This document shows positions 21,950-49,696 of a DNA stretch of 64,000 nt, piece after piece (the first letter of the stretch is position 1; the number at the start of each line of letters is the position of its first letter). Origin of the DNA: an uncultured bacterium (lineage in GTDB: Bacteria; Zhuqueibacterota; QNDG01; DTFT01); assembly GCA_963736115.1 (NCBI GenBank), contig CAVTNR010000008.1, forward strand, positions 128,001 to 192,000. Direction: 5' to 3'. The translations under genes and the position numbers were made by a program. The notes below the pieces were generated by a model that worked only from the letters and a program-made list of their open reading frames with translations, was not told the DNA's origin and did no database searches.

Positions 21950-22136
21950 TTGAAGGCCCGCGGCTTGTCTTCAACAAGCAGGCATATAATAGCTTGATCC
22001 CGCGCAGCGGGCCGCGGGGTAAGCGAGCGAATATCAGATGTCTCTTCTCTACAGATAGAAGATTCCCCGCCGCTTGCCTTCAAACAGAAGGCATATAATA
22101 GCTTGGTCCCGCGAAGCGGGCGGCGGGGAGCTTCAA
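21950..22136. mobile_element. MITE/PATE-like element, copy 2, with two 44-bp insertions
   Basis: TTGAAG...CTTCAA ends; shared core; both hairpins interrupted (21968-22011, 22077-22120). Confidence 0.75.
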
Positions 22137-22222
22137 TGGCGGAAGGCGGAAGAAAGCCGGATGATCCTCGCCCGTATGCTTTGAACCTTGAACTTTGAAC
22201 TATTACTGGAGGGAGGGCTTCC

Positions 22223-22669
22223 ATGGACTTCGACTCTTTTATGTCCCGTTATTTCTGGATCGTCCTTCCCGTTTTCTGGGTTCTCATGTGCCGGCTGGTC
22301 GCCCGGATAAGCGGATGGAATGCCCTGGCCGAATCCTACGCGGCCCAGTCCGACGCCACTGGAACGATTCTCCGGTTCCAGAGCGGTTCCTTCCGCTGGA
22401 GCGCCAATTACAGCGGGCTGCTGAATGTCGGAGCGGACAGCAGCGGACTGCACCTGTCCGTGATCATGTTTTTCAAGCCCGGGCATGCGCCGCTGTCCAT
22501 CCCGTGGAGCGACATTCGGGCCGAACCGCATGGCGTGTTCACGCCGGCGGTGCGCCTGACCTTCAGCCGCAATCCGAAATGTCCGCTTTTCATTTCCGGA
22601 AATCTGGCGCAGAGGATCGCAACGATGAGCGGGGGAGGGTTTACGGTGCCGGCGCAAAAGAGTTCATAG
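22223..22669 (+). CDS. membrane-anchored hypothetical protein
   Basis: GGAGGG RBS; N-terminal TM; SGW..LA..Y, GLHL, PLSIPWSDI. Confidence 0.75.
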   Translation: MDFDSFMSRYFWIVLPVFWVLMCRLVARISGWNALAESYAAQSDATGTILRFQSGSFRWSANYSGLLNVGADSSGLHLSVIMFFKPGHAPLSIPWSDIRAEPHGVFTPAVRLTFSRNPKCPLFISGNLAQRIATMSGGGFTVPAQKSS

Positions 22670-22782
22670 TTGATAGTTCATGGTTCATAGTTAGAAAAAC
22701 GTGAAATGTAGCTCTGTTTTTCACTATGAACCATGAACTATCAACTATGAACTGTTTTTTTGTTAACCATGAACTATGAACT
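22661..22782. repeat. inverted heptamer arrays
   Basis: 22661-22691 and 22723-22753 are exact 31-bp reverse complements, including the variant unit. Confidence 0.9.
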
Positions 22783-22793
22783 TTTTTTGATAT

Positions 22794-22830
22794 AAAAAAG
22801 CCCCGCCGGTACCGAAACAGGCGGGGCTTT
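22794..22830 (-). terminator. intrinsic terminator downstream of ligA
   Basis: GCCCCGCC-loop-GGCGGGGC with T run on the minus strand. Confidence 0.75.
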
Positions 22831-22964
22831 CATCCCAGAGAAGGAGGAGGGAACGTTCAATGCCGGAGATTTCGCAATCCATCCGAAATCACCATTAAGA
22901 TACGAATGACGCCCCTCCGCGGTGTTGTTTTTCTGTCATTTTTTGTATTCAATCGTCACGCAGC

Positions 22965-25013
22965 CTACAGGCTGATTTTCAGTTGTCCGCCGGCCTGCGG
23001 TTTTCTCCGTTTCGCCTTTTCCAGCCGTCCGACGAAGGTGTCCTCGTCCATGATCGGGATGCCGAGGTCGAGCGCCTTCCGGTATTTGGATCCGGGCTCC
23101 GCGCCCGCGAGCACGAAGTCGGTGTTCCGGCTGACCGATCCCGTGACCACGCCGCCTTCCGCCTCGATGCGCCGCGCCGCTTCCTCTCGCGTGAAGCCCT
23201 GGAGCGTTCCGGTCAGCACGAAAATACGGCCTTGAAAAACGCCGCCTTCGGACGGCTTTTTCCGTTCCTGCTCCGTCCGGACGCCCGCGGTTTTCAGCTT
23301 TTCCAGAACCTTCCGGTTGCCCTTCCGTGAAAAGAACTGCGCGACGCTGTCCGCGATGACCGGGCCGACGCCCTCCACAGCGGCCAGTTCCTCGGGCGAC
23401 GCGGCCGCGATCGCGTCGATGGAGCCGAAACGGTCCGCGAGCAGGGACGCGACGTTTTCACCCACGTGCCGGATGCCCAGGCTGAACAGCACCCGGTCGA
23501 GCGGCCGCTGTTTTGATTTTTCGACCGCGGCCGTGAGGTTGGCCGCGCTTTTCTCGCCCATGCGGTCGAGCGACGCGAGCTTTTCACGCTTCATCGCATA
23601 GAGGTCGCCGAAATCCGAGACCAGACGGTTTTCGAGGAGCAGGCGGACCACCGCGTCTCCGAGCCCGTCGATGTCCATGGCGCCGCGCGAGGCAAAATGC
23701 GTGATCCGGCGGAGCACCTGGGCGGGGCAGGCGACGTTTTCGCACCGCACCGCGACCTCGTCCTCGGTCCGTGAAACCGGCGAGCCGCAGACCGGGCAGT
23801 CCGCCGGCATTTCGAAGGGCCGAGAGTCTTTGTGCCTTTTCGCGAGCACGACGGACGCGATCTTGGGGATAACGTCGCCGCCCTTTTCGATCAGAACGGT
23901 GTCGCCTTCGCGTATGTCCTTGCGCCGGATTTCCTCCTCGTTGTGCAGTGTGGCGCGGCTGATCGTGGACCCCGCGAGGAAAACGGGAGCGAGTTCGGCC
24001 ACGGGCGTGATCGCGCCGGTCCGGCCGACCTGAAAGTAGATTTTTTTCAGCACGGTCGCGGCCTGGCGCGCCTTGAACTTGTAGGCGACGGCCCAGCGCG
24101 GGCTTTTGGCCGTCACGCCCAGCCGCTCCTGCTGGCCGATGGCGTTGACCTTGACGACCACGCCGTCGATCTCGAAGGGGAGGCTGTCGCGCCGCTCCTC
24201 CCAGCCGCCGCAGAACTCGACCACTTCCCACATGGATTTGCACAGGGCCGAGTGGCGGCTGACCGGAATCCCCAGCTCGCGCAGAATGTGCAGGCGGTCC
24301 AGCTGGGTGCCGGCCGGGACGTCCGCGATCAGCGCGTACGCGGTGAACTGGAGCGGCCGCCGGGCCACCGCCTTCGGATCCTGCAGTTTCAGCGTGCCGC
24401 CCGCGGCGTTGCGGGGATTGGCGAAAAGCTTCTCGTCCAGTTTCTCCTGGTCCCGGTTCATTTTCTCGAATCCGGCCTTGGGGATGTACACCTCGCCCCG
24501 CGCCTCGACGTCCGCCGGCAGTCCGGGATCCGCGAACAACCGGAGCGGGATGGAGCGCACGGTCTTCAGGTTTTCCGTGATGTCGTCTCCGCGTTCGCCG
24601 TCCCCCCGGGTCGCGCCGCGGACGAACCGGCCGGCCTCGTAGACCAGGCTGACCGCGATGCCGTCGAATTTGAGCTCGGCCACGTACTCGACGGGCTCGT
24701 CCGGAAGCGCGTTCCGGATCCGCTTTTCGAACTCCATCAGCTCGTCGGTGGAATACGTGTTCGAGAGGCTCAGCATCGGCGCCGCGTGCGTCACCGCAGG
24801 GAATTCCTTCGTCGGCGCGCCCCCGACACGGCGGGTGGGCGAGTCCGGGGTGACGAGGTCCGGCCGGGCCGCCTCCAGGTCCGAGAGCCGGGCCAGGAGC
24901 CGGTCGTATTCCCGGTCCTGAATCTCCGGATCGTTCAGCACGTAATAGCGGTGATCGTGCCTGCGGATCTCCTCGCGGAGGGATTCGATCTCTTTTTCCA
25001 TGTCGGAAGGCAT
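22965..25013 (-). CDS. ligA: NAD-dependent DNA ligase
   Basis: ELKFDG, TRGDG, FANPRNAA, DGVVVK, Zn finger CPVC..C..C, BRCT domain. Confidence 0.97.
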   Translation of the reverse strand: MPSDMEKEIESLREEIRRHDHRYYVLNDPEIQDREYDRLLARLSDLEAARPDLVTPDSPTRRVGGAPTKEFPAVTHAAPMLSLSNTYSTDELMEFEKRIRNALPDEPVEYVAELKFDGIAVSLVYEAGRFVRGATRGDGERGDDITENLKTVRSIPLRLFADPGLPADVEARGEVYIPKAGFEKMNRDQEKLDEKLFANPRNAAGGTLKLQDPKAVARRPLQFTAYALIADVPAGTQLDRLHILRELGIPVSRHSALCKSMWEVVEFCGGWEERRDSLPFEIDGVVVKVNAIGQQERLGVTAKSPRWAVAYKFKARQAATVLKKIYFQVGRTGAITPVAELAPVFLAGSTISRATLHNEEEIRRKDIREGDTVLIEKGGDVIPKIASVVLAKRHKDSRPFEMPADCPVCGSPVSRTEDEVAVRCENVACPAQVLRRITHFASRGAMDIDGLGDAVVRLLLENRLVSDFGDLYAMKREKLASLDRMGEKSAANLTAAVEKSKQRPLDRVLFSLGIRHVGENVASLLADRFGSIDAIAAASPEELAAVEGVGPVIADSVAQFFSRKGNRKVLEKLKTAGVRTEQERKKPSEGGVFQGRIFVLTGTLQGFTREEAARRIEAEGGVVTGSVSRNTDFVLAGAEPGSKYRKALDLGIPIMDEDTFVGRLEKAKRRKPQAGGQLKISL

Positions 25014-25203
25014 GGGGGCTCCTGCATGCGGGGTGGGCGGTGACCCCATAAACTATCACAAAATTTATTCTTAGTCAACAAAATATTTCTTGTTTTCGCG
25101 CGTTTTAAGTAGTATCTTACTGCCCGCGTTTTTGGGCGACGGACCCAAAAGCGGTTTTTTATGCCTTGTGCCAAACAGGAAAGGTGAATAAAAACAACCC
25201 ACT

Positions 25204-27282
25204 ATGTTTACCGACCTCCAGAAACTGCGAAACATCGGGATCAGCGCGCACATCGATTCGGGCAAAACCACGCTCACTGAGCGCATCCTGTTCTACACCA
25301 AGAAAATCCACGCCATCCACGAGGTCCACGACAAGGAGTCCGGCGCCACCATGGATTCCATGGACCTGGAACGCGAGCGCGGCATCACCATATCCTCCGC
25401 CTCCACGAACGTGGAATGGAAGAAATACTCGATCAACATCATCGACACGCCCGGCCACGTGGACTTCACCATCGAGGTCGAGCGGTCGCTCCGCGTCCTC
25501 GACGGCGCCATTCTCGTTCTGTGCGCCATCGGCGGGGTGCAGTCGCAGTCCCTGACCGTGGACCGCCAGATGAAGCGCTACAAGGTGCCGCGCATCGCTT
25601 TCATCAACAAGTGCGACCGCATGGGCGCTGACCCCGACCGCGTCGTCAACCAAATGAAGGACAAGCTGGGCGACAACGCGGTGCTGATGCAGATTCCCAT
25701 CGGCCTCGAGTCGGCCTTTGAGGGCGTCATCGACCTGATCCGCATGAAAGCGCACTATTTCGACGGGGCGAACGGCGAAATAGTGAGGGAGGAGGAAATC
25801 CCCGCCGCCCTGGTGGAGAAGGCGAAAGCCAAGCGCGACGTGATGCTCGACACAGTGTCGCTGTTCAGCGACCGCCTCATGGAGGCGTACCTCGAGGACC
25901 GGGTCGAAGAGGACATGATCCACGAGGCCGTCCGGAAGGGGACGCTCTCGCTCGGCCTCACCCCGGTGTATGTCGGGTCCGCGTTCAAGAACAAGGGCGT
26001 TCAGCTCCTGCTCGACGCGGTGCTGGCCTATCTGCCCGGCCCCGCGGACGTGAAGAACACGGCCCTGGACCTGGACCACGAAGAGGCGCCGGTCGAGCTG
26101 AAGTCCGATGTCGAGGCGCCGCTGGTCATGATCGCGTTCAAGCTCGACGACACCCGGTACGGCCAGCTCACCTACGTCCGGATCTATCAGGGGCACGTCC
26201 AGAAGGGCGACGAGATCACGAATTCCAGGACGGGTAAAAGCGTCCGCGTCGGCCGCCTCATCCGGATGCACGCAGACGAGATGGAGGATATCACGGAGGC
26301 GGGCGTCGGGGACATCGTGGCCCTGTTCGGCGTGGATTGCGCGTCGGGCGATACGTTCACCGGCGGCGGCGTCCGGTACGCCATGACCTCGATGTTCGTG
26401 CCGAACCCCGTCATTTCGCTTTCGCTCAAGCCGAAGGACAACAAGTCGCTCGAGGGCATGGCGAAGGCGCTCAACCGGTTCACGAAGGAGGACCCGACCT
26501 TCCAGACCTACGTGGACCCGGAGAGCAACGACACGATCATCCGCGGGATGGGGGAGCTCCACCTCGACATCTACATCGAGCGGATGCGGCGCGAGTACAA
26601 GGTCGAACTCGAGACCGGCGCGCCCCAGGTGGCCTACCGCGAGAGCATCTCGCGGAGCGCCGATTTCGACTACACGCACAAGAAGCAGACGGGCGGCTCC
26701 GGACAGTTCGGCCGGGTCTGCGGCCGCATGGATCCCTTCCACGAGGGAGAATTCGAATTCGCGGACGAGATCAAGGGCGGCTCGATTCCCCTGGAATTCA
26801 TCCCCTCCTGCCGGAAGGGATTCGAGGCCTGCCTCGCCAAGGGGTCGATCATCGGGTTCCCCATCGTGGGCGTGAAAGTCACCCTCAACGACGGGAATTC
26901 GCATGCGGTCGATTCGTCCGACGTAGCGTTCCAGCAGGCGGCCATCGGCGCCTTCCGCCAGGCCTACGGCAAGTGCAAGCCCGTCATCCTCGAGCCGATC
27001 ATGAAGGTCGTCGTGGAGTGCCCCTCCGAGTACCAGGGCACGGCCCTCGGCACCATCAACCAGCGGCGGGGCATCATCCACAGCGCGACGGAGGACAAGA
27101 ACTTTACCGTCATCGAGTCCGAAGTGCCGCTGGCCGAGATGTTCGGCTATTCCACCGTCCTGCGGTCCGCGACCCAGGGCAAGGCCGAATTCACGATGGA
27201 ATTCTCCCAGTACAAGAAAGTGCCGGAATCCATATCCGAGGAACTGATCAAGAAATACGCTGACAAGGCCAAAGGCCGCTAA
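25204..27282 (+). CDS. fusA: elongation factor G (stand-alone, spd/mtEFG1-like)
   Basis: [36 protein letters not shown]. Confidence 0.96.
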
Positions 27283-27319
27283 CCCCGGTCCACGGACCGT
27301 CATCCGAAAGGCTTTACGA

Positions 27320-28030
27320 ATGGTAAAAAAAGAACTGAACCAGAGAAGCCCCATCCGTGTCCTCGAGAAGTCGATTCACGGGGGACTGGGTCGGGGCAAC
27401 CTCGGAGTATTTGCATCCAAGAAGGGTGTGGGGAAGACCGCCTGCCTGGCGCATGTCGCGCTCGACTGCCTGCTCCGCGGGGAAAAGGTCCTGCACGTGT
27501 CCTTTTCGGACAACCCCAGTCACATCGAGAGCTGGTACGAGCACGTCTTCCAGGAGATGGCGGCGACCTTCCGGCTCGAGGACGTGAGGGACGTGCACGA
27601 CGAAATCGTTTCCAACCGGCTGATCGTTCATTTCCGGCAGGCCGACCGCACGTTGCAGCAGGTCCGCTCGCACATGGACACGGTCACCGCGGGCTCCGGC
27701 TTCACGCCCGCCGTCATCATCGTTGACGGATTTTCGTTCACGGCCGCGAACGACGCGGACTGGGCGATATGGAAGGAAATCGCGGCCGAACGTAAAGTCG
27801 AGATCTGGTTTTCCGCCTCCCTGCCCCCGGGCGAAATCGTCACGGACGATTCCGGCATTCCGGCGCCGGTGGCCGCGGGCAAGCGCTTTTTTTCGGTGAT
27901 CATTCAGCTCCAACCGATGCAGGACCACATCGATCTGAAACTGCTCAAGGACCGCGACAGCGTCGATCTCGAGAAACTCCGCCTCAAGCTCGATCCGAGG
28001 ACACTCCTGATCGCGAATCACCGCGCGTAA
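27320..28030 (+). CDS. RecA/KaiC-like P-loop ATPase
   Basis: GGLGRGNLGVFASKKGVGKTA, KVLHVSF, IIVDG. Confidence 0.8.
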   Translation: MVKKELNQRSPIRVLEKSIHGGLGRGNLGVFASKKGVGKTACLAHVALDCLLRGEKVLHVSFSDNPSHIESWYEHVFQEMAATFRLEDVRDVHDEIVSNRLIVHFRQADRTLQQVRSHMDTVTAGSGFTPAVIIVDGFSFTAANDADWAIWKEIAAERKVEIWFSASLPPGEIVTDDSGIPAPVAAGKRFFSVIIQLQPMQDHIDLKLLKDRDSVDLEKLRLKLDPRTLLIANHRA

Positions 28031-28123
28031 CCGGCCGTAAAAGCCGCCGGCGCGTGACCGGCCGCCCAGTGTCCGTTGTTCCCCGGCCCTGAGCCGTGCC
28101 GCCTGCCCGGCTGTTCCCGGAAT

Positions 28124-28163
28124 AAAAAAAGCCGCCCCCTGGTTGGGGCGGCTTTCGTTTTTT
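28124..28163. terminator. bidirectional intrinsic terminator
   Basis: A-run GCCGCCCC-loop-GGGGCGGC then T-rich tail. Confidence 0.75.
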
Positions 28164-28260
28164 CAGATGACGGCCGGAGCTTCGGGTCCTTGGAACTTCG
28201 GGTGCCTGGAATACGGGAACCCGTGAACGCGGGATCGGCGGATTTTTCCCGAGCGGCGGC

Positions 28261-28418
28261 CGAATCTGTCAGCGAGCGTATACCCCGGAGCTTGCCTTAG
28301 CAGGCATCTGTAGATTGGTCCCGCGCAGCGGGACGGGCTCCGGGGTATGCGAGCGAATATAAATTGTCTTTTCTCTACAGATAGAAGATTCCCCGCCGCT
28401 TGCGGCGGGGAGCTTCAA
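28261..28418. mobile_element. MITE/PATE-like element, copy 3, with one 43-bp insertion
   Basis: Shared core and CTTCAA end; first hairpin interrupted at 28295-28337. Confidence 0.72.
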
Positions 28419-30362
<1,944 letters not shown>

Positions 30363-30381
30363 GAAGACGCCTCCCTTTTCC

Positions 30382-31869: not shown

Positions 31870-31895
31870 GAGATGGTCTTATCCGGGTCTATTTT

Positions 31896-31911
31896 TGCAA
31901 ATTACATGCCA
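31896..31911 (-). promoter_or_regulatory. sigma54-type promoter
   Basis: TGGCATGTAATTTGCA (GG-N10-GC), 26 bp upstream of the kinase ATG. Confidence 0.65.
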
Positions 31912-32024
31912 TAAATAAATGCTTTGCTTTATTTTAGGGGTGTTCTTAATTTGTGGAATACAGGCATTTCGTCCGTGTGGAGGCCATACGGATAAGGACA
32001 GTTTAAACATGAAGATAATTGAAA

Positions 32025-36504: not shown

Positions 36505-36512
36505 CGTAAAAG

Positions 36513-36872
36513 TGGTGGAGACGGTGGGAATTGAACCCACGTCCGAAAACAGAACACCCCGGAATACTACGTGCGTAGCCCTATCATTTGATCTTGCCCG
36601 GGGCACCCAAAGGGCTGGGATCCCAAGGCCAAGTCCGCTGTTGTCTCGCCGGACTTCCGCGGACATGAAGCCGGCCAGCCCGTCTTAAGCGACGCCCCTA
36701 TACGGCCCCGACAGGCGCGGGCCGCGAGGGACGGGTTGCCTATTTAACTAGGCAGCCATGGCATACGAGTAGTTGTTGCCATTTAATCTGTTCCCGGATT
36801 ATTTACCAGGGTCCAGGAACCTGGACACGCATTCCGAGACCTTACTGAATCCGTCGAATCCAGTTCGTCCCC
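36513..36872 (-). ncRNA. ssrA: tmRNA, tag (A)GNNYSYAMAA
   Basis: 5' GGGGACGAACTGGATTCGAC; 3' GTGGGTTCAATTCCCACCGTCTCCACCA; G3-U wobble; tag frame 36780-36748 ending TAG; TTGACA-N17-TAACTT promoter at 36923-36895. Confidence 0.96.
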
Positions 36873-39012: not shown

Positions 39013-39064
39013 GATCTATCCCATGCAAAATTTTCGGATTAGGGAATCATATTCGTCAATAACC

Positions 39065-39172: not shown

Positions 39173-39624
39173 TTCTCGATCTTCACCACGGCCTTGCGGA
39201 TCAGGCCCTCGCCGCCCATGGGCGCGTGGCCGTCGGCCGGGAAGAACAGGGCGAAGGACCCGGCCTCTACCGTCTTCCAGGTCTGCGCGTCGTCCCGGAA
39301 GAAGACAATGTCCCTTTCCGCGTCGAAATCCGATTCCGGGGACAGGCAGCGGTCCAGGGGCTTCCACCCCATGACGTCGGCGCCGGACAGGACGAACTGG
39401 AGATCGATGTACCTGCGGTGGGCCTCGAGTCTGGCGCTCTGCCGGCCCTTGCCCTGGCCCGTGCTGATCAGGCAGAACATCCGGTCAGCGTCGATGTCGA
39501 TGCGGCCGTCCGCGGCGTCATCCCGCAGTTCCGTGCGCAGGAATGCGAAGGCGCGTTCCAAGAGCGGGTGGAGGGAGAAGTACGCTTCGGCGTTGTCGAT
39601 CTGGTCGGTTATGAATTGAGCCAT
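39169..39624 (-). CDS. YhcH/YjgK/YiaL (DUF386) family protein
   Basis: EAHRRYIDLQ; FFPADGHAP; KAVVK. Confidence 0.92.
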   Translation of the reverse strand: MAQFITDQIDNAEAYFSLHPLLERAFAFLRTELRDDAADGRIDIDADRMFCLISTGQGKGRQSARLEAHRRYIDLQFVLSGADVMGWKPLDRCLSPESDFDAERDIVFFRDDAQTWKTVEAGSFALFFPADGHAPMGGEGLIRKAVVKIEK

Positions 39625-39646
39625 GTATCGTTCCCCGTCTTTCTTG

Positions 39647-39839
39647 AGTTCATAGTTCATGGTTCATAGTTCATAGTTGAAAAGCGGATGGAGGCGGTAC
39701 TATCTATTCTCTTTTAAGTTGAGTTCATAGTTCATAGTTGAAAAAACCAAAAGGGGAAATAGTTCATGGAAAAAACGAGAGCGGACTGTTTTCATGATCT
39801 CTATTTTAACTATGAACCATGAACTATGAACCATGAACT
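39647..39839. repeat. inverted heptamer arrays
   Basis: (GTTCATR)n 39647-39678 and 39722-39739; (YATGAAC)n 39808-39839. Confidence 0.85.
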
Positions 39840-39844
39840 GTTTT

Positions 39845-42247
39845 TCAGTACTTCCCCGGCGCGAAGCCGAGGTAGGGGCTGGAATGATCGGTTTCCCTTC
39901 CTGCGCGGTATTTCAGGTACAGCATGGCCGAGTGGTGGTAGGTGACCGGGTAGTCCCGTATCAGGTAGGCCAGGGACCGGTAATCCTTCTTTTCCAGATC
40001 CGGTTCAGCCGTGAGAAGGGCTTCGAATGCCAGGCCTCCCAGTATCCCGTCCGGAATCACGATGAGACTGCGTCCACGGATCCAAGGCTCGACGGGCCTG
40101 ATCAGCGTTTTGTAGCACCAGAACGCGTCCTCCGCGTAACGGCCGTAGTCCATTTTCACGATGCCCTCCCGCACGCCGTGGACGCGGCGCTCCAGGATAG
40201 TATCCCTGGGCAGGCGCACGGTTTCGAACAGGCCGGCCGTGATGACGAATATCGTGACGAAGCGGTCTCCGATGAAATATTCCACGAGCGCGTCTTCGGG
40301 TTTCAAGAGCCTTTTCCGCAGGTCCTCCACGGTGACGGTATACGTGCCGTACCGCAGGCTGAGAAATTCCGGGTATTCCCTGTCGAACCGGCCGATGATT
40401 TCGTCCCATTCGCGTTTAATCTTGAACCGGCGCGCTTCCAGGGACTTCAGGCGGCTGTCGTCCGCCGCCGTCCCGTTCCCCATCTCGTCCCGGATGACCT
40501 TTTTGCAGTCCCCGAATTCGATCCGAAGCCGGTTCTCCTTCTCAATCAGGTCGGCAGGGACTCTGCCAAGGCGCATGGCCTGCTTGTCCATGACCGACCG
40601 CATCTGGATAAAGACCTTGCTCTTTTCGGAAAAGAAGAAAGCTTTTTCCTTGAACCCCTCATTCCCGGTCAGCCGGTGGAGCTCGAGCGCCGTTTCGACC
40701 CCATGTTCGAATATAAAACGGTAATCCGAGGCCAGATCGAGCCTCGGCTCGATGGACAGCATGCCTCCGCCGATACGGTCCATCAGCCGCATGGCCAGCT
40801 CCCAGTTCGTCAGGGCCGCCTCCAGGTCGGCCGGGGACCGGCTGACGCGGGTGTAGCGTTCCCCGAAGGTTTCCGCCTTCAGACGTAAAAGGGGGAGCAT
40901 TTGGAAGTCCACGTCCGGCCCGTCGATCTGCGGATTCGACGCAGGATCGAACCCGCTGAAGCCGGGAACCGCGGCGAGAACCGCGTCCTGCAGGGACCGG
41001 AGCGCGGCCGCATAATTCCCTTTTTTTCGATGCACGTTGGCAATGGCCTTGTGCGACTCCGAGGTCCAGTTGGAATACCGGCCCAGCTTTTCCAGCCGGA
41101 GATCGAGCGATTTACCGTAAAAAGCCAGAGCTTCGTCCAGTTCGCCGCGCCGGACCTTGACATGCCCGATCCGGAAAACCGCCTGCGCCGCCTGAAGCAA
41201 GGTCGATTCCCTGTTTTTGGCGCAGACAGCCAGGCATTGTCGGTAACAGCGCAGGGCCTCTTCCGTTTTTTTCTGCCGCCAGAAGATGTAGCCCATGTGG
41301 TTGTACACGCCCGCGACCGAAGGATGGTCCGGCCCCAGGGTCGTGACGTAGGCCGAGAGGGCCTTTTGCTGGAATGCCATTGCCTTCGGGAAGTCGTCTT
41401 CGAGCAGGGCCAGGGACCCGAGGTTCTCGTACGCACGGCCGGTTTCCGGATGCGCGTCGCCGAAATGCAGCTTGTTGATGTCGAGCGCCCGGCCGTAGAA
41501 AAGTCCGGCGTTTTCCCAGTCGTGCCGGCTCTTGTAGACATTCCCCATCTGCAGGTAGACCTGCGCGAGGTCCGGATGGTTTTCGTCGCGGCATTTCCGC
41601 AGTATGGCCAGTGCCGTGTCGAGGTAGGCCAGTGCGGTCGGATATCGGGTCCTGGCGATGTAGACTTTTCCGATGCGACGGTACGCCATGCCGAGAAGCG
41701 GGCCGTCCGCGGCCGCGAGGGGCAGGGCGCGGAAATAGCAGCTCAGCGCGCTGTCGAAATCGTTCCGTTCGAAACGGAGCTGTCCCAGTCCTGCCCAGGA
41801 GGCCGCGGTTTCCGGCCGGCCGGGGCCGAGCCGGGTATCGGCGATCTGCATGGCGCTGTCGAAGGCCGCATGCGCCGCGTCGAATTCCATGCTCTGAATC
41901 CGGTTCTCACCTATGCCGTTGAGGCATCGGACTACGCTGGACCAGTCCCTTTGCGCGGCGGCCAGCGTCATGGCCCTGCGGAAACTCAGTATGGACGGAC
42001 CGTGCCGGCTGTCGAGAAGCTCCTGCTCGGCCGTGACCATGAGGGAATGAATCCGATCCGAACCGGAACCATGCGCGGAGGGATCCGTTCCCGAGCCGCC
42101 GTGACGCGGAACGGGATTCGCGATCCAGAGCGCGACGAGGAGAAGGATGACCGCGAGAATCCAGGCCCTGGTATTGAAGGCCAAACAGACCTTTTTGAAA
42201 CCGGCCGTGAACCGGCGGCCGGCCCCGCGGCCCGGGGCCCGTTTCAT
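39845..42247 (-). CDS. membrane-anchored TPR protein ending in the N-terminal, non-catalytic half of a CHAT domain
   Basis: N-terminal TM; kinesin-light-chain-like TPRs (HPDLAQVY, HPETGRAY, HPSVAGVY); AF..SEKSK; LVEYF; LIVIPDG.L..L.FEAL; stops at YLGFAPGKY. Confidence 0.85.
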   Translation of the reverse strand: MKRAPGRGAGRRFTAGFKKVCLAFNTRAWILAVILLLVALWIANPVPRHGGSGTDPSAHGSGSDRIHSLMVTAEQELLDSRHGPSILSFRRAMTLAAAQRDWSSVVRCLNGIGENRIQSMEFDAAHAAFDSAMQIADTRLGPGRPETAASWAGLGQLRFERNDFDSALSCYFRALPLAAADGPLLGMAYRRIGKVYIARTRYPTALAYLDTALAILRKCRDENHPDLAQVYLQMGNVYKSRHDWENAGLFYGRALDINKLHFGDAHPETGRAYENLGSLALLEDDFPKAMAFQQKALSAYVTTLGPDHPSVAGVYNHMGYIFWRQKKTEEALRCYRQCLAVCAKNRESTLLQAAQAVFRIGHVKVRRGELDEALAFYGKSLDLRLEKLGRYSNWTSESHKAIANVHRKKGNYAAALRSLQDAVLAAVPGFSGFDPASNPQIDGPDVDFQMLPLLRLKAETFGERYTRVSRSPADLEAALTNWELAMRLMDRIGGGMLSIEPRLDLASDYRFIFEHGVETALELHRLTGNEGFKEKAFFFSEKSKVFIQMRSVMDKQAMRLGRVPADLIEKENRLRIEFGDCKKVIRDEMGNGTAADDSRLKSLEARRFKIKREWDEIIGRFDREYPEFLSLRYGTYTVTVEDLRKRLLKPEDALVEYFIGDRFVTIFVITAGLFETVRLPRDTILERRVHGVREGIVKMDYGRYAEDAFWCYKTLIRPVEPWIRGRSLIVIPDGILGGLAFEALLTAEPDLEKKDYRSLAYLIRDYPVTYHHSAMLYLKYRAGRETDHSSPYLGFAPGKY

Positions 42248-42258
42248 TCCGCGTGTTT

Positions 42259-43089
42259 TCACGGACGCAATTTCCGTTTCGCCGGCCGATGGCCGCGCTT
42301 CATCCGCGTCCATGCGAGGCCCGCGGCCAGGGCGGCGGCCGCGAGACACCCGGCCGCGGCGAGGCTTTTCCGGGTGCGGGACGATGACGGCTTCAAGCGC
42401 AGGGGTTCCACGCTCCCGGACTGGACCATGCCGGCCCAGAAAATCGGATTGGCGCTCCTGGCGTCCGCGTTTTCCAGCCAGGCCAGTTTCGCGTCCCGGA
42501 GTGCCACATGCTTTCTGCGTCCGGCCGCGAGCCCATCGTAGTACGCGGCCACCAGGGTTGACGATGACCTGTCGTCCACGGGCCAGAGGCTCATCAGAGC
42601 GCTGTTGCATCCGGTGAGCATGAAACAGCGTCCCAGGCTGAGGTATCCGTCTCCCTCGGCCAGCACGCCCGAGCCCGTGTTGCAGGCGCTGAGCACGGCC
42701 AGGTCCGCGGAGAATCGCATTTCGTAAATTTCGTGCATGTAGAGGACGCCGTCCTGGCCTGACCCGGCATCGGGCGAGAGGATGAGGCCGGTATCCGCGT
42801 TGTTTTTCTCGTCTACGACACAATGTGTGGCGATGTGGAGGATGCCGGCTTTCGGGGCTTCCCGCTTGAAGCGGCTTTCCGTGGCCCGGCCGCCGCAATA
42901 GGCCTTACCGTGCGCGCGGCCCGCGACCGCGGTGACTTCCCGTTCCGCCCAGCTCAGGCGTATCATGGCCGGCCTTGCGGAATCCGCGGGGGCCTTGCTT
43001 TTAATCGAACGGGAAACGGGACCGGAACCGCCGCAGGACCACAGCAGCAGGACCGCGGCTGAACCGATGAGGACAAGGGGGATTCGGAT
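42259..43089 (-). CDS. lipoprotein carrying the catalytic caspase-like half of a CHAT domain plus C-terminal TM
   Basis: Lipobox LWSC; AEREV; ATESRFK; ILHIATHC; LAVLSACNTG; MSLWPVDD; PIFWAG. Start inferred at an ATC codon after AAGGAG. Confidence 0.82.
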   Translation of the reverse strand: MRIPLVLIGSAAVLLLWSCGGSGPVSRSIKSKAPADSARPAMIRLSWAEREVTAVAGRAHGKAYCGGRATESRFKREAPKAGILHIATHCVVDEKNNADTGLILSPDAGSGQDGVLYMHEIYEMRFSADLAVLSACNTGSGVLAEGDGYLSLGRCFMLTGCNSALMSLWPVDDRSSSTLVAAYYDGLAAGRRKHVALRDAKLAWLENADARSANPIFWAGMVQSGSVEPLRLKPSSSRTRKSLAAAGCLAAAALAAGLAWTRMKRGHRPAKRKLRP

Positions 43090-43150
43090 GACCGTTCTCC
43101 TTGAAGGGCGGGCCCCCGCTCGCCGCGGGAGTGCGGGGGAAAAGTTCCGG

Positions 43151-43951
43151 CTACGGACCGGGCGCGTTCCGCCGCAGGCGTCCGGCCAGTTCGGCGGATT
43201 CCCGGCTGAACGGTCCTCCCACGAGGCGGAGGGTGTCGAGCAGGGCCAAAGCGTCTTCGGTTTCACCCTGCCGGACGTGGCAGAGCGCCGCGTACCAGGC
43301 GGCCTGCAGTTCCCAGTCGCTTCCGCGGCTGAGCGCCGCTTCCCTGAGATGGGACAGGGCCGAGCGGGTGTCGTTCATGGCCAGGCTGGAGATTCCCGCG
43401 TAGAAATGCGCGGTCGCGTTCTCCGGTTCGCGGGCCAGAAGGGTTTCGAGCATGATACGGGAGCCCTGGTAATCGCCGGCATCGTATTCGGCCATCGCGT
43501 TTTCCAGCCATCCGGCCGGTTCCTGACTGCGGAACAGAGGGACGGTGTTCGGATACGGCTTGAAATAGGAGTCGAACAGGCTGTTCGTTTCCGGTCCGCG
43601 GGAAAGGACGGTCAGGAGCACAACGGCCGTAACCGGAATCAGCGCGGCCAAACCCAGAACCCAGACTCTGCCGCGCCTGCGTTCCGGAGTCCGGGACAGG
43701 CGCGACGCCCTCGCGCGAAGCTTGAGTTCCGAGACGGTTTTACCGGCAGTTACCGGATCCCCGGCCGCTTCCATGCCGTCCATGGCCTCGGAACAGAACA
43801 GGCAAGCCGCCAGGTGCTCCTCGATTTCGCGATGATCCGCGGCCGTGCCGCGGCCGGACGCGTAAGCCGCGAACTGGTCGAAGCTCAGGCATTGCGTCTG
43901 CCGGAATATGCCGCACACGGGCAGGGCCGGCTTCCGGACGTTTTTCTTCAT
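43151..43951 (-). CDS. zinc-finger anti-sigma factor with TM and extracytoplasmic TPR domain
   Basis: HLAACLFC; TM; LFDSYFKPYPN; FYAGIS; AAWYAAL; ATGA overlap with the sigma gene. Confidence 0.85.
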   Translation of the reverse strand: MKKNVRKPALPVCGIFRQTQCLSFDQFAAYASGRGTAADHREIEEHLAACLFCSEAMDGMEAAGDPVTAGKTVSELKLRARASRLSRTPERRRGRVWVLGLAALIPVTAVVLLTVLSRGPETNSLFDSYFKPYPNTVPLFRSQEPAGWLENAMAEYDAGDYQGSRIMLETLLAREPENATAHFYAGISSLAMNDTRSALSHLREAALSRGSDWELQAAWYAALCHVRQGETEDALALLDTLRLVGGPFSRESAELAGRLRRNAPGP

Positions 43952-44514
43952 TTTTCCCCTCCCGCGAAACGGGTTGCCGCAATCTTCAGGTTTCTTCTTC
44001 CGTTCTGGATACTGCTTTTCACCTGCCTGACCGGGACGCCCATGATTTCCGCGATTTCCCGGTAGGACTTCCGTTTCAGGTAAAAGAGCTCGACGCACGT
44101 TCTCTGCTCCCCGTCCAGTCCGGCGAGCAGGGTCTCGCAGTCCGGAAGATCCCTGCCTGTAAGATTCAAAAAGTCCCCGTTTTCCACAACCGCGGCGTCC
44201 TTTTCCATCAGCGGCCTGAAAATCATTTTCAGGCGCGAGGCCTTGCGGAGCCGCATCAGGCAGTGGTTTTTCGTGACCGCGTGCAGCCAGGCCGGCACAT
44301 TGGAGACCCGGTGTTTCCCGGCCTCGGACAGGAGTTTGTGGAAGATGTCCATGACCGCGTCCCTGCATTCCTCCTCGTCTTTCAGGTATTTCCGGCACAC
44401 GAGGAAAATTGTGTGGCTGTAGCGCAGGAACCAGGATTCCACGGTAGCGGCGTCGGGTACGGTGAGCTCTTGGGAAGGTGAGGAAGATTCGGATTTACCG
44501 AATGGAATTCGCAT
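43948..44514 (-). CDS. ECF sigma factor (Bacteroidota-type)
   Basis: CRKYLKDEEECRDAVMDIF; WLHAVTKNHCL; QRTCVELFY..SYREIA..VKSSIQNGRRNL. Confidence 0.92.
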   Translation of the reverse strand: MRIPFGKSESSSPSQELTVPDAATVESWFLRYSHTIFLVCRKYLKDEEECRDAVMDIFHKLLSEAGKHRVSNVPAWLHAVTKNHCLMRLRKASRLKMIFRPLMEKDAAVVENGDFLNLTGRDLPDCETLLAGLDGEQRTCVELFYLKRKSYREIAEIMGVPVRQVKSSIQNGRRNLKIAATRFAGGEK

Positions 44515-44799
44515 GAAGTCCTGACAGTCGTTCTGGACGGGGAGAATACCTAAATTTATATTCCAAATGAACTTAAATGTAAAACTGTTTTTTGAAAAAT
44601 GCAACAGGAAAAATAATATTTATGGAATCCGGGGATTTCCCGCATCTATCATTTATGGACAGGACGCATTCGGATATCCGTTCCAGGTCCATGCAGAAGC
44701 AATAGAGGATGGATTTCCGGACTTCTTCGGCGGGAGAGGATCGTTCCGGAAAACCATACGTTGATACAACCCCCGGGAGGGGGGTCATAGGGAGAGAGA

Positions 44800-44842
44800 A
44801 AAACCACCCGTCTGAGAGGGAGCAGGCGGGTGGCTTTTTTTT
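44800..44842. terminator. bidirectional terminator
   Basis: A-run CCACCCG...CGGGTGG then T run. Confidence 0.65.
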
Positions 44843-44874
44843 AATATCGGGTCAAATTTGTAATCTTGTCATAG

Positions 44875-45100
44875 ATAGTTCATGGTTCATAGTTCATAGT
44901 TCAGCTGAAGGTCCGAAATGCCGAGTCCCGCCCCCGGATCCAGTCCGTGGCAAGCCATGCGGGACGAGGCTTTCGGACATCCGTTAAGAAAAGTCCGATA
45001 GCCTCGCTGAGGATATGCTCGGCATATCGGACCTACAATGCTTTTTTTACTATGAACCATGAACTATGAACTATGAACTATGAACAATGAACCATGAACT
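44875..45100. repeat. composite repeat: heptamer arm, inverted REP pair, inverted heptamer arm
   Basis: Arms 44875-44902 and 45049-45100; GTCCGA..TCGGAC palindromes 44911-44979 and 44993-45037. Confidence 0.85.
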
Positions 45101-45104
45101 TTTT

Positions 45105-47802
45105 TTAAAGAGTAAACCAGTAACTCGCCTTCACCAGGAAAACGTTCTCCGCGGCGGCGGACGAGAGGGCGTCGAGGTTTTCGGACACCGATTGCTCCCA
45201 CAAGTCCGTCCAGCTCGTCCGGCCCTGCGACCACACCGCGTACAGCACCGATCCCGGCCTGTATTCCCATCTCAGCACAAGGTTCGAGCGGAATTCGCGG
45301 AAGCTGAAGGACGGGTCGTAGAATCTGTATTCCGGCCCGCCGGATTCGGTCACCCAAAGCGTCTGGTCCGCCTCAAGCCGGACGATTTCATCCTTTCCGA
45401 CCTCCCTGAAGCGTTCCTTCCCGGAAATTGCCAGAGGCGAGAGCACCCGCTTGTAATCCGAGTACCGTCCCGTGGAAATGAACGGGCTCCCGTAGAATTG
45501 CACCGAAAAGTCCGGAGTCGCGTACCAATTGAGCCGAAAGGTCGCGGACAGGGTTTTCTGGTCGATGCGGCCGAGCACGTACAGGGTTTCGCCCGGGGAC
45601 CCTTCCACGGTCGTGGCGTACTGCAGGTTCTGGATGTTCCGCGAATGGCTGAAGTCGGCGGACAAAGAAACGCGGTCCGCCGCGCGCCACGAGAATCCCG
45701 CGGACGGTTCGTGCAGTTCCGATACGCCGCCGCCGAAAAAGTGCGCGTGGTCCGAGATCCGGGCGCTGAAGGGTTTGCCGCCGTCGCTCGACACGCTCGC
45801 GGAGACGCAGATCAGGCCGGGCATGCGGAAGGCCGGGCCGCCCCTGAGCATGCGCGTGTCCGCGTACGGCCGCAGGTGGTTGAATCCCGCGTTGAAACCC
45901 CAGCGGTTGTGAAAGGCGCCGCCGAACGAAAGGCCGGTTCCGTCGCTGGTCGAAAGCCCGCCGAAGTCCCAGTTGTTCCACTGGCTGAAATAAACGGACC
46001 AGGAGCGCAGGATTTTGCCCGGGTCGGTCTGGCTGTATTCCACGGACGCGCTGTTCGCCAGCACGTCGGCCTGCTGCAGCCAGCCGATGTCGTTGAGGTC
46101 GAGTCCCGGCGAGTACCAGTGGAACGCGTTTTTCCACCGGAGCTTGCTGTTTCCGGCCCGGCCGAAAGACAGGAATCCGCCGTGGCCGGAAAGCGACTCC
46201 GCGAGGGAATCCACTGTGACGTGACCCGCGTCCGGCCGCTGAAAGAAGTGCACGGCTCCGGTCTGGGCCCGGAGCATGGCTTCCGCGTCCCCCGACAGCC
46301 GGCTGGCGAACACGCGCGCCTCGGCCAGGTAGTTCCGGTTCGCGAGATAATGGCTGAATTCGAGGCCGCCGGTCTGTGCAGATCGGGGCATGAAGCGGAG
46401 GTGCCGGTCGTCGATGATCCGGTTAACGGATGTCGCGATGCCGCCCAGGCTCGTGGTGCCCTTGTCCCAGTCCTTTTTCAGCCTGGCCATGACATAATTC
46501 GTGACCGGCTCGACCGCGGTTTTCTCCTCCCCGGAACCCGGGCCGCCGGGAGAGATGCGGGCCGTTTCCCTCTGCGTCACGCTCTGCAGAACGCCGAGCG
46601 AGAGCCCGTCCACGGTCTTGCCCGTGACCTTCACGGCGTTCAGAATGGTGGTGTTCTCCGGCATTTTAACGTAGCCGTCCGGCACGAAGGGCGTGTATGA
46701 CGGCGCGTGGCCGACACGGCGCGAGTAGAACAGATCGGCGCCGTCCCCTCCCGCGTCGAAGGTCATGAGGTTTCGGCCCTCCAGAAAGAAGGGCCGCTTC
46801 TCGGAGTAGAATGTCTCGAAGGCCGACAGGTTCATCACCGACGGGTCCGCCTCCACCTGGCCGAAGTCCGGGTTGAACGCGGCGTACGAGCGTGATGTCC
46901 GTGGTGAGCCCGATCTTCGCGTCCAGGCCCAGCATGCCCGACACGTCCGACCCGTCATGGAACGGGTCGCCCGGCGCCGCCGGTTTCGCGTCGATACGGC
47001 CCAGGCCGTAGGGCAGAATCTCGACGCGGCGCGAGCGTTTCAGCCCCTTGATGCCGCGCAGTTCGCCGATGTGGTAGAACCGGCCGTTGTTGTTGCGCGG
47101 AATGAGGTTCCACTGGTCCTCCTCCTGGTTCCGGTCCAGCCAGCGCCAGGCGTGCATGCCCCAGACCTGTTCCTCCTGGGGGCCGTAGCGGAGCTGGCTC
47201 AGGGGAATGCGGAACTCGGAGGTCCAGGCGGAGTCTTCCGTTCCGACTTTTCCCTCCCAGACCGCGTCCCAGTTCATGTCCCACTGGCAGTCGCGCTCCG
47301 CGTTCATCAGCAGAAGGTCGATCTTGCCGCCCCCGGCCGTGAGGTCGAATTCGAAGCCCTGGCGTTTCGACCCGTAGCTGTCGAAGCAGATGCCCACGAC
47401 GTCGCCCGTCATTTCGTCGCGCCGCGACACGAACCGGTGCATCAGGGACGGATCGTCGAAGGCGCGGATGGCGAAATAGACGTTGTCGTCGTCGTACAGG
47501 ATGTTCATCTCGGTTTTCGCCGTGGGCGGCGCGTTCTCGGTAGGAATCTGCATGAGAAAATCACCATGCCATTCGCCCTCGGCCCAGCAGGCGTCGTCGA
47601 GTTTTCCGTCGATCACGGGCGGAGGCGACTGAAATCGCCGGGTCTCGTACACGCGCACCGGGTACACGCGGCCGAAGCGGTTCCCGGGAGCCGGGTTCAG
47701 GCTGTCCGGCGCCTGCCCGGAAAGCGGAAAAGCGGCCGTGAAAAGGCCCGCGGCCGTCAGCAGGGCTGCGGGAACGGACAGGATGGGTCGGGTCGAACGC
47801 AT
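45105..47802 (-). CDS. CBM9-like + DUF5916 outer-membrane protein with one frameshift near 46886
   Basis: PVIDGKLDD..W; WTSEFRIPLSQLRY; NPDFGQVEADP; EKRPFF; LFYSRR; VLRWEYRPGS. Removing one base restores TLDAAFNPDF. Confidence 0.85.
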
Positions 47803-48009
47803 CGGATCTCCTGGTCTGTTGGGATGAACAGTGTCCCTTCCGTGACAGGGGATAATATAAGCAACACGCTCATATCCGGCAAGTAAAAGGATGTAATAAA
47901 CTTCGGGTCCGCGGAATGGGAGAAAGGGCTTGATTTTATCGGAAGCGGGGGCTAATTTGACTTCGGGCGGCCGCATCCGCGGCGCCCGGTTTTCACAAGG
48001 AGGGTTGAT

Positions 48010-48483
48010 ATGAACAGTTACCGCATGCTTCCGGTCCTGGTTCTCAGCCTGGCCGTCACTGTCCCGGTCCTCGGACAGACGGCCGATTCCGCGGCTGTTC
48101 CGGCCGTGGTCCCGGACATCGTTTCCGAATCCGCTCCGGATTCGGTGCCGCCGAAAACCCCGATGCGTTCTCTCACCATAGAGAACAACACGGACGTTTT
48201 CACCTCGGTCCGCATCCGCATCCTGCCCGCGGATACGACAGCCGCCTCGCTGGAGATACCGGCCGGCGGGAAAGAGACGGCGCGCCTTCCGAACGGGAAA
48301 TACGTGGAACTGATCCGTTTCGGGTCCGATTCCACCGAGTACCGGTACGGCAAAGGCGAGGGATTCGAGCTGGCCGCCCCCGGGCCGAACCAGTGGATCG
48401 AGGCGACTCTGACGCTCGACGGCCTGGAGGAGGGCAATTACCGCCAGGACGACACGACTGCCGAGGAGTTTGAGGCTAAATGA
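48010..48483 (+). CDS. secreted hypothetical protein
   Basis: AAGGAGG RBS; signal peptide; beta-rich acidic domain. Confidence 0.7.
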   Translation: MNSYRMLPVLVLSLAVTVPVLGQTADSAAVPAVVPDIVSESAPDSVPPKTPMRSLTIENNTDVFTSVRIRILPADTTAASLEIPAGGKETARLPNGKYVELIRFGSDSTEYRYGKGEGFELAAPGPNQWIEATLTLDGLEEGNYRQDDTTAEEFEAK

Positions 48484-48526
48484 CATCCGACCCCGGGGTC
48501 GATTTTACGAATAAGGAGAAACAACC

Positions 48527-49375
48527 ATGCGCTGGATAGGTCGAAGGCAGAGCGAGAACGTCGAGGACAGAAGGGGCATGTCGCCCAAGACCATGGTCGG
48601 CGGCGGCCTCGGAACCCTCGTCATCCTGATCATCGTGTTTCTGCTCGGCGGCAATCCCCTCGAACTCCTGCAGAACATGCCGGATGCGGAAACGGGCATG
48701 GTTGATCAGACCACGAGCCAGGAGGACAACGAGCTGGCCCAGTTCGCCAAGGTCGTGATGGCCGATACCGAGGACATCTGGGGCAAGCTGTTCCAGCAGG
48801 CGGGCAGCCAGTACCAGCCGCCCGTGCTCGTGCTGTACACCGACATGGTGCAGTCCGCGTGCGGATACGGCAGCGCGGCCACGGGCCCGTTCTACTGCCC
48901 GGGAGACAACCGGGTGTACATCGACCTTTCCTTCTACCGCGACCTGCAGACGCGCTTTCAGGCGCCTGGCGATTTCGCCATGGCCTATGTCATCGCGCAC
49001 GAGGTCGGCCACCACATCCAGAACCTGCTGGGCGTCAATGACAAGGTCATGGCGGTGCGCGAGCGCGTCGACGAGCGCACGTACAACCGGTACAGCGTGG
49101 CCATGGAGCTCCAGGCCGATTTCTTCTCCGGCATCTGGGCGCATTACGACCAGAAGCTGAACAACGTGCTCGAGGAGGGCGACCTGGAGGAGGCCCTGAA
49201 CGCGGCTTCTGCTGTCGGCGACGACCGCATTCAGAAGCGCACGCGTGGCACGGTCGTGCCCGACGCGTTCACGCACGGCACGTCGGAGCAGAGGCGCATG
49301 TGGTTCGAAAAGGGATTCAAGACCGGCGACCTGAGCCAGGGCGACACCTTCGCGGCGTACGGGTTAGAGTTGTAA
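48527..49375 (+). CDS. ypfJ: neutral zinc metallopeptidase, YpfJ family
   Basis: RQSENVEDRRG; GPFYCPGD; AHEVGHH; ELQAD; FTHGTS. Confidence 0.92.
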   Translation: MRWIGRRQSENVEDRRGMSPKTMVGGGLGTLVILIIVFLLGGNPLELLQNMPDAETGMVDQTTSQEDNELAQFAKVVMADTEDIWGKLFQQAGSQYQPPVLVLYTDMVQSACGYGSAATGPFYCPGDNRVYIDLSFYRDLQTRFQAPGDFAMAYVIAHEVGHHIQNLLGVNDKVMAVRERVDERTYNRYSVAMELQADFFSGIWAHYDQKLNNVLEEGDLEEALNAASAVGDDRIQKRTRGTVVPDAFTHGTSEQRRMWFEKGFKTGDLSQGDTFAAYGLEL

Positions 49376-49378
49376 ATA

Positions 49379-49696
49379 AGTTCATAGTTCATGGTTCATA
49401 GTTCATAAAAAAATCATAAGGGGGGTGTCATTCCCGCATTCTTTAAGCGGGAATCCAGGGGTGGGGTGGAAAGTAGGCCGAGTCGCGGCGCGCGGTTTTT
49501 TGCGCGGCTATCGGACAACTCCGTGTCCGGTTGAAGGTATGGTAGCCGCAACCCTTCAATATTCTCAAGATATAATGGTTTGGTCCCGTTCATCGGGGCT
49601 TTAGGTTGCGCTGGTCAGCTTTTATAGATCCGAAATGCCGGGTCCCGCCCCCGGATCAAGTCCGGGGCAAGCTTTGCGGGACGAGGCTTTCGGACA
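49379..49696. repeat. cluster of several palindromic repeat families
   Basis: Heptamers 49379-49406; GTCATTCCC repeat 49427-49458; REP 49473-49517; interrupted GTAG REP 49542-49610; REP with CCCCGGATCAAGTCCGGGG insert 49625-49696. Confidence 0.75.

Follow-up and report, generated by a model that had tools for sequence, protein, structure and literature searches.

A sharply bounded 44-nt repeat that occupies the loops of other palindromic repeats in an uncultured member of the Zhuqueibacterota

The stretch of DNA considered here (the window) comprises the 64,000 nucleotides at positions 128,001 to 192,000 of contig CAVTNR010000008.1, from a 3.34-Mb draft genome, 87% complete, of an uncultured bacterium of the Zhuqueibacterota (GCA_963736115.1). 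It carries copies of a 44-nt unit (43-46 nt), here named U, which is a real, sharply bounded and structured repeat family entering the loops of several unrelated palindromic repeat families. An earlier reading of the letters alone (the sequence-only reading) had described four segments, at 21968-22011, 22077-22120, 28295-28337 (divergent) and 49553-49598, and all of them are present at these coordinates. Excising any of the four lets complementary host half-stems rejoin, and TATAAT is seen in three. The empty hairpins described at 2749-2768 and 28391-28410, and a related empty repetitive extragenic palindrome (REP) near 19946, were likewise found. Three copies in the window had escaped that reading, at 21913-21956 (-), 52341-52383 (-) and, in divergent form, about 52518-52562 (-); it had also not recognised that the copies of the 21913-22120 region and the copy at 28295 sit in larger composite repeats, 21891-22134 and 28263-28416. 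The features are as follows, with G001 and G003 denoting genomes of relatives.

2749..2768, plus strand: empty host hairpin CCCCGCGG-CTTG-CCGCGGGG (sequence inspection).
19944..19968, plus strand: empty REP of the GTAG type, belonging to the family in which the U copy at 49553 sits (sequence inspection).
21891..22134, plus strand: composite repeat type I (AATCTGACAGCGAGCG...GGGGAGCTTC) with three U copies inside; the whole block is absent from the G003 orthologous site.
21913..21956, minus strand: U copy with 3' hairpin CCGGCGAAGCCGG (CCGGC-GAA-GCCGG, a compensated stem); nhmmer E 0.006.
21968..22011, plus strand: U copy of the T...A type in the loop of CCGCGG-CTTG-U-CCGCGG; nhmmer E 1.4e-14.
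22077..22120, plus strand: C...G-type U copy that also has a hairpin at its 5' side (CCTTC/GAAGG), lying in the loop of CCCCGCCG-CTTG-U-CGGCGGGG; nhmmer E 1.1e-14.
28263..28416, plus strand: composite repeat type I with hairpin 1 filled and hairpin 2 empty (28391-28410); absent from the G003 and G001 orthologous sites.
28295..28337, plus strand: divergent U copy with 5' end CCTTAGC and without TATAAT, in the loop of CCCCGGAG-CTTG-U-CTCCGGGG; nhmmer E 5.8e-4.
28391..28410, plus strand: empty host hairpin CCCCGCCG-CTTG-CGGCGGGG (sequence inspection).
49553..49598, plus strand: copy of U from a distinct subfamily with hairpin CCCGTTCATCGGGG, placed at the 5' loop edge of the GTAG-type REP 49541-49611.
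52341..52383, minus strand: solitary U copy outside any hairpin, 3' hairpin CCAT-TTT-ATGG; nhmmer E 1.8e-3.
52518..52562, minus strand: divergent U-like copy (weak), 3' hairpin GGTTCC...GGAACC; nhmmer E 0.17.

The consensus of U reads YCTTCAA(T), a variable, largely AT-rich stretch of about 22 bases, often with TAnnAT inside, (A)GCTTGRTCC, and a terminal GC hairpin, mostly CCCGC-GNA-GCGGG and sometimes followed by one extra A or G. From end to end, YCTTCAA with its terminal YC is followed by an AT-rich spacer, then by the tetranucleotide TTGR and a single T, and the unit closes with a GC hairpin of 5-7 bp. Variants of this hairpin differ by compensated changes (CCCGC/GCGGG, CCGGC/GCCGG in about 15-20 copies, CCAGC/GCTGG, CCAT/ATGG and GGTTCC/GGAACC), and a second hairpin at the 5' side is confined to the CCTTC...GAAGG subfamily. 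YCTTCAA and ...GCGGG, the two ends, do not form inverted repeats, and there is no target-site duplication, so that neither mark of a classical miniature inverted-repeat transposable element (MITE) is present. Folded as single-stranded DNA, the filled hairpins form three-way junctions, with z-scores of -1.8 to -5.6. At Rfam gathering cut-offs tmRNA was the sole family to appear, its gene lying in the window at 36513-36872 (-) (RF00023, 186.8 bits), and 21850-22200 gave only chance-level hits (E at least 1.5). No sigma-70-like promoters or intrinsic terminators were called in 21800-22250.

With four copies as queries, blastn-short found 85 separate loci in the genome, and a profile built from 62 copies gave 85 hits at E<=1e-6, 100 at 1e-4 and 132 at 1e-2. 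A structural pattern, made up of the 5' motif, a TTGRTCC-like motif and a perfect hairpin, retrieved 162 copies, 138 of them 43-46 nt long; as this pattern demands a perfect hairpin, stem statistics of the 162 are partly built in. Within the window, CTTCAA-N16-22-TTGRTCC matches five times against 0.04 expected from 100 shuffles, which shows that the U copies are not chance. An exact pattern has 101 matches in the source genome, 64, 53 and 47 in three other species of the genus, and one in the family's sole other genus. Matches also occur in four genomes from other families (G026 15, G023 4, G005 4 and G028 1), and none occurs in the remaining 22 genomes of the order; a reversed-pattern control gave none in all 31 genomes of the order. 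In a collection of species-representative genomes at least 81 loci were found, the matches listed all coming from seven assembly accession prefixes, and viral contigs gave no match to U.

The placement of U with respect to other repeats is far from random. Flanks perfectly paired over at least 5 bp accompany 70 of the 162 copies, compared with 216 of 5000 random position pairs (4.3%). Wherever such flanks leave a remainder of the host loop, it lies on the left (CTTG 37, TTG 7, CAAG 3, GAAG 2) and never on the right, which places U at the 3' end of the host loop, just before the descending arm. Classified by position, 66 copies sit in a loop closed by perfectly paired flanks of at least 5 bp and 13 in one closed by a 4-bp stem, 11 directly follow the 3' side of a perfect hairpin, and nine are nested in the hairpin loop of another U (...GGTCCGGCGAAG-U-CCGG...). 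Among the other 63, many follow CAAGCSGCGGG, the 3' arm of the main host hairpin on the other strand, and others sit in REPs with imperfect stems. This main host, called P, is the hairpin CCCCGCSG-CTTG-CSGCGGGG. Perfect plus-strand hairpins of at least 6 bp number 17 with a CTTG loop and 33 with a CAAG loop, against 10-15 for six control loops; empty P hairpins thus exist, outnumbered by the filled ones (59 copies after GCTTG). Over all 162 copies, the five bases to the left of U are GCTTG in 59, GCGGG in 29 and CGAAG in 11, the remainder being various.

The sequence-only reading had counted two unrelated host families, and more than two are now evident, with the GTAG-CCGCA REP occupied in both orientations. 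This GTAG-type family 2 hosts different U subfamilies in its two orientations. When the copy at 49553-49598 is removed, its host flanks rejoin as GCCGCAAC and CTTTAGGTTGCG. In relatives, hosts include GTCCCCT-GACAAG-U-AGGGGAC and CCCCT-TTTTAAG-U-AGGGG, an insertion within an arm (ACGCTCCGGG-U-GAGGTT...), and a position beside an AT-rich hairpin in a different composite. The U subfamilies each tend toward one host context. Bases -2 and -3 of the left flank covary with bases of the AT-rich box, a signal in which subfamily and host context are confounded and which is not used as evidence. Many apparent host flanks are in fact opposite-strand U copies or pieces of composite repeats. Pairs of copies recur in fixed arrangements, 15 of them head-to-head 11 nt apart and eight on the same strand 65 nt apart; the window has both, since 21913-21956 (-) lies head-to-head with the 21968 copy across an 11-nt gap, directly 3' of a hairpin arm on its own strand, and 21968 and 22077 are spaced like the same-strand pairs. 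Near the last noted copy, at 49647-49677, a GTAGGTCCGAAATGCC-type REP carries a different inner-loop insert of 31 nt, GCCCCCGGATCAAGTCCGGGGCAAGCTTTGC, at a place where the G003 orthologous repeat has the loop TGAA. A similar insert is found on contig C17, its other strand shares the motifs GCTTG and TTGATCC with U, and it constitutes a second small loop-dwelling repeat.

Comparison with related genomes shows that U can come or go by itself. An automatic screen of 45 aligned pairs yielded two clean cases in which orthologous sites differ by U alone and no duplication is seen; a third flagged case was unclean. In the first, the source genome has CAAG-U-CGGTGGGG where a relative has CAAG-CGGTTGGG; in the second, it has TTTG-U-CGGCGGAG where a relative has CTTG-CGGCAGAG. 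The absence of an obvious target duplication, noted in the sequence-only reading, holds in both the paired-flank and the orthologue comparisons. Copies occurring mostly outside hairpins, or always as an inseparable part of one larger repeat, would have counted against that reading, and neither situation was found.

Larger repeats change as well. The block 21891-22134 is missing as a whole from the orthologous intergenic site of G003; in G001 the orthologue (locus L007) is a run of N and comparison is impossible. The block 28263-28416 is missing from the orthologous sites of both G003 and G001, and its orthologue in G002 (L018/L021) is shorter: a U from a different subfamily stands between the left arm of hairpin 1 and the right arm of hairpin 2, as though two U copies had recombined or a replacement had taken place. 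The REP with its U at 49541-49611 is missing from the orthologous place in G003. In a wider comparison of relatives' loci with the source genome, 80 were compared and 40 had both flanks matched; in 12 of the 40 the relative carries repeats of 100-300 bp where the source genome has at most 15 bp, and in 26 something is present in both. Two composites recur among these blocks. Type I, AATCTGWCAGCGAGCG...GGGGAGCTTC, enters next to AA, where an ambiguity or duplication of 2-3 bp is possible, and is seen in relatives at L036, L074, L095 and L077. Type II contains ...CATCATCCAAG... and ends ...GGCTTCTGGCCGCCCGA (L063, L054, L061, L048, L067 and L037). A 181-bp copy at C12:324547-324727 is 98% identical to the inner part of a composite (about 21957-22137 in the window), which indicates that composites are being copied with U as their passenger.

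The strongest hint about mechanism comes from the two ends of the unit. The first base of U (C or T) covaries in Watson-Crick fashion with the purine (R) in TTGRTCC, just upstream of the hairpin. Among the 162 pattern-defined copies, 97 have C-G, 51 have T-A and 14 have other combinations, several of the latter being evident false positives of the loose pattern. Profile-defined hits agree (68 C-G, 36 T-A and 7 other in 111 scorable of 132, with 21 unscorable), as do the loci of relatives (46, 46 and 3). In 206 distinct anchored rows the counts are 112 C-G, 89 T-A and 5 other, and the mutual information of 0.83 bit is the highest within the unit. Both pair states occur within eight groups that share one middle 8-mer, so the first base and R have repeatedly changed in concert. 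C at position 2 and the G preceding R hardly vary, and they could pair as well (C2:G3).

A similar logic has been described for known single-strand transposition systems. In IS200/IS605 elements a guide tetranucleotide directly 5' of each hairpin selects the cleavage site by pairing with it (PMC8266576). In REPs the tag GTAG is thought to act as this guide, with the cleavage dinucleotide C|T pairing with G4 and A3 (PMC8266576, PMC3333891), and in a Marinomonas system an altered GTAG led to an altered cut (PMC8266576). The TTGR of U stands at the place of GTAG, and Y1:R4 together with C2:G3 would reproduce the published pairing geometry. Mainly because of this match, a hairpin-binding HUH tyrosine nuclease acting on single-stranded DNA is the favoured agent.

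We tentatively favour, at somewhat less than an even chance, that U is a discrete non-autonomous mobile DNA unit of the REP kind, handled as single-stranded DNA by an HUH tyrosine nuclease supplied in trans. The enzyme would be of the type of the REP-associated tyrosine transposases (RAYTs) or of IS200/IS605, and would bind the 3' hairpin of U. Pairing of TTGR at the foot of the hairpin with YC at the opposite end would bring both ends to one active site, and the excised strand would be rejoined into the single-stranded DNA exposed at the 3' loop end of another extruded hairpin. Insertion would typically follow (C/G/T)WWG, most often CTTG, with no duplication of the target. Once inside a REP or a composite, U might be further amplified as a passenger of that repeat.

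Several properties of U resemble those of REPs, bacterial interspersed mosaic elements and REP doublets (REPINs) moved by RAYTs (TnpAREP). It is short, high-copy and extragenic, has a GC hairpin with compensated changes, and carries just 5' of this hairpin a conserved tetranucleotide whose last two bases could pair with a distant dinucleotide. It also forms inverted doublets and tandem and mosaic arrays, no target duplication is seen, and RAYT genes are present in the genome. In contrast to REPs, U carries a 30-nt AT-rich arm, has no RAYT gene that it flanks, and resides inside the loops of other REPs, including two GTAG REPs that flank RAYT genes. With IS200/IS605 elements and palindrome-associated transposable elements it would share the single-strand hairpin logic, the guide pairing and strand-specific insertion 3' of a short motif without duplication. 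It differs from them in having one constant hairpin instead of two and 44 nt instead of at least 100, in having no full-length element with the same ends and no orientation bias with GC skew, and in its variable left targets. U acts most like a REP or an IS200-type single-stranded DNA substrate, and lacks both the GTAG that is the defining REP tag (PMC8266576) and the adjacent RAYT gene by which REP membership is judged. In heterocystous cyanobacteria, small dispersed repeats of 21-27 nt were reportedly described by Elhai et al. in 2008 as mobile-looking, often nested in other repeats and with no known enzyme; U belongs to a different phylum and has different sequences.

The genome encodes three RAYT-like genes (Y1_Tnp), at C17:75072-75362, C2:71517-71777 and C19:57621-57866 (loci L001-L003). 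Each is flanked by its own REP family, namely GGGAGTGCCGCGCCCCAACGCGGC, GGTAGCCGCAGCCTTTAGGCTGCGC and GTAGGTCCGAAATGCCGAG...CGAGGCTTTCGGAC, and two of these three families have the canonical GTAG tag. The second family, which flanks the RAYT gene on contig C2, is also the host of the window copy at 49553, and the third hosts a third U subfamily. In G001 a fourth GTAG REP, GGTAGCCCACGACTTTAGTCGTGGGG, flanks a strong Y1 gene.

A number of observations weigh against the favoured reading. The tag of U is TTGR and not GTAG or CGTC, and the three RAYT genes of the genome are flanked by other REP families, none of them by U. More broadly, a scan with the U profile found U flanking 0 of 53 Y1-transposase loci (32 of the order plus 21 of the genus and G026), the sole hit lying inside a REP, 1.4 kb from a RAYT gene. 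No longer element with the 3' module or the ends of U was found in the genome. The earlier proposal of a minimal, hairpin-targeting and non-autonomous element stands as far as a discrete unit with sharp ends and a preference for hairpin loops is concerned, whereas its mobilisation in trans gained no support from these searches, nor did the longer IS110 or HUH element with U ends that it had proposed to look for, the lone IS110-family gene having unrelated ends. Cutting between the first two bases (Y1 and C2), the position used in E. coli REPs, would not yield the empty sites observed for T-type copies, and the left target varies instead of being a single tetranucleotide. Unlike IS608-type elements, U shows no bias with respect to the replication strand: orientation against local GC skew gave 77 versus 70 (p 0.62), and 66 versus 45 in the main subfamily (p 0.057), on draft contigs with weak skew. 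Most turnover between species, moreover, involves whole composites of 150-300 bp and not U alone, and the partly built-in stem statistics count on the same side.

Several candidates for a partner were considered and set aside. Unpaired 3' modules, taken as possible ends of long elements, proved to be chance matches in coding sequence or copies with a mutated 5' motif, and no partner end lies within 1.3 kb of a truncated copy on C12. The genes between neighbouring U copies 300-4000 bp apart include no transposase (a methyltransferase, a subtilase, a tyrosyl-tRNA synthetase, a phosphodiesterase and four ORFs without a family). No sequencing run contained more than a fraction of 0.11 of the words sampled from 21600-22500. 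A partner gene may also be unassembled, given the completeness of the genome. In another family of the order, a RAYT-like gene of G019 (L128) is bracketed by 35-nt inverted repeats, TATATTTATCAATATTTTAGCTTGGTCCGACCCCA (1052-1086 and 2141-2175), which share an AT-rich stretch and AGCTTGGTCC with U; its protein is only 23% identical to one RAYT of the source genome. As about 30 TTGRTCC hits in the scanned loci make chance a possible explanation of the shared motif, this gene is regarded as a lead only. In G026 (L161, about 205-250, minus strand), a U-like block of 45 nt follows CATG, just upstream of or within the N-terminal open reading frame extension of an IS91-like integrase gene. This block is missing from the same place in a related element of G020 (L162), and its first 11 bases repeat the host bases that come after it. 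A further link between the composite of G026 and an IS91-like locus, through a shared 17-nt palindrome, was judged to reflect another dispersed palindrome.

Other explanations account for parts of these data. U might now be immobile, a module of MITE-like composites (types I and II) and REPs that do move, with filled and empty sites left by a small number of old events, by deletions or by gene conversion among paralogous repeats. The 12 of 40 loci with a block of at least 100 bp in the relative and at most 15 bp in the source genome would fit this, as would the absence of all three window loci as whole blocks in relatives, the 98% identical 181-bp composite part on C12 and the tendency of each subfamily toward one host context; one orthologous site holding different U subfamilies in two species fits conversion. 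Yet at two orthologous sites U is the sole difference and its ends are exact; these share only a 1-nt repeat, so that slippage would not excise the unit precisely. U is also found in numerous unrelated contexts, within one REP in either orientation, self-nested, in tandem and solitary, and the Y1:R covariation indicates that its ends are under a constraint of their own. We regard this explanation as unlikely. A rolling-circle HUH enzyme of the IS91/Helitron kind (Y2), whose elements enter the active strand 3' of CTTG, would explain why 59 of 162 copies follow GCTTG and why the 3' hairpin abuts the end of U: the IS91 family is described as having a CTTG target, no target duplication, a palindrome abutting its terminating end and a single-strand circle intermediate (PMC13181058), traits by which U would resemble it. 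It is quite improbable, however, as Y2_Tnp is found in none of four genus genomes (76-96% complete) and in seven of the 31 order genomes, the IS91-like elements of relatives end ...GGGGNTTAGTTC, unlike U, and left flanks such as GCGGG, GAAG and GCAAC are neither CTTG nor GTTC.

The same holds, more strongly, for two further proposals. One is that U serves the cell as RNA or DNA, for instance by binding a protein, by structuring the end of a transcript or through a promoter-like TAnnAT box, in which case its spread would be secondary. Several subfamilies, and distant relatives too, retain the box at a constant spacing from the hairpin, and filled hairpins give three-way junctions (z-scores as low as -5.6), but the box is missing from the CCGGC and CATCTG subfamilies, neither promoter or terminator calls in 21800-22250 nor Rfam point to such a role, and copies lie in both orientations, often as inverted pairs; this is a very improbable account. 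Least probable of all is insertion by a site-specific recombinase acting on folded or palindromic targets, either of the IS110/IS1111 type (DEDD) or an integron-integrase-like tyrosine recombinase. Several elements insert specifically within REP palindromes, as U does, among them IS1397 and ISKpn1 (IS3) and IS621, ISPa11 and ISPpu9/10 (IS110) (PMC1525189), and the genome holds one IS110-family gene. Those elements, in contrast, are autonomous, at least 1 kb long and equipped with their own transposase, whereas U is non-coding, with no full-length relative, and is far smaller than any non-coding part known to be required by such enzymes. The IS110-family gene lies in AT-rich DNA and its ends show no similarity to U, and no recombinase gene is bracketed by U, housekeeping genes occupying the space between neighbouring copies.

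Seen against these alternatives, the REP-like mobile unit looks like a very small parasite of other repeats. A bolder form of this reading, which we consider possible but doubtful, is that U would be the smallest self-contained substrate of single-strand DNA transposition, packing one hairpin, a guide tetranucleotide and its paired terminal dinucleotide into 44 nt, and a hyperparasite of REP loops that borrows the RAYT "domesticated" for those REPs or uses a class of enzyme not yet tied to REPs. Should it be true, the guide-like pair, T-A or C-G, would offer a simple natural handle for reprogramming cleavage.

The spread of REPs is poorly understood, and whether the moving unit is a single REP, a doublet or a mosaic is debated. 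The genus described here shows the layers together: GTAG REPs with their RAYT genes, two composites, and a 44-nt unit that enters hairpin loops in each of these. Sites with and without U can be compared as they occur in nature, and a clean compensatory pair with two states ties the end of U to the base of its hairpin, which gives a testable prediction about the mechanism of cleavage and makes U a small substrate for the biochemistry of hairpin-guided single-strand DNA nucleases. For annotation, these repeats explain the block differences of 150-300 bp in intergenic regions between species of the genus.

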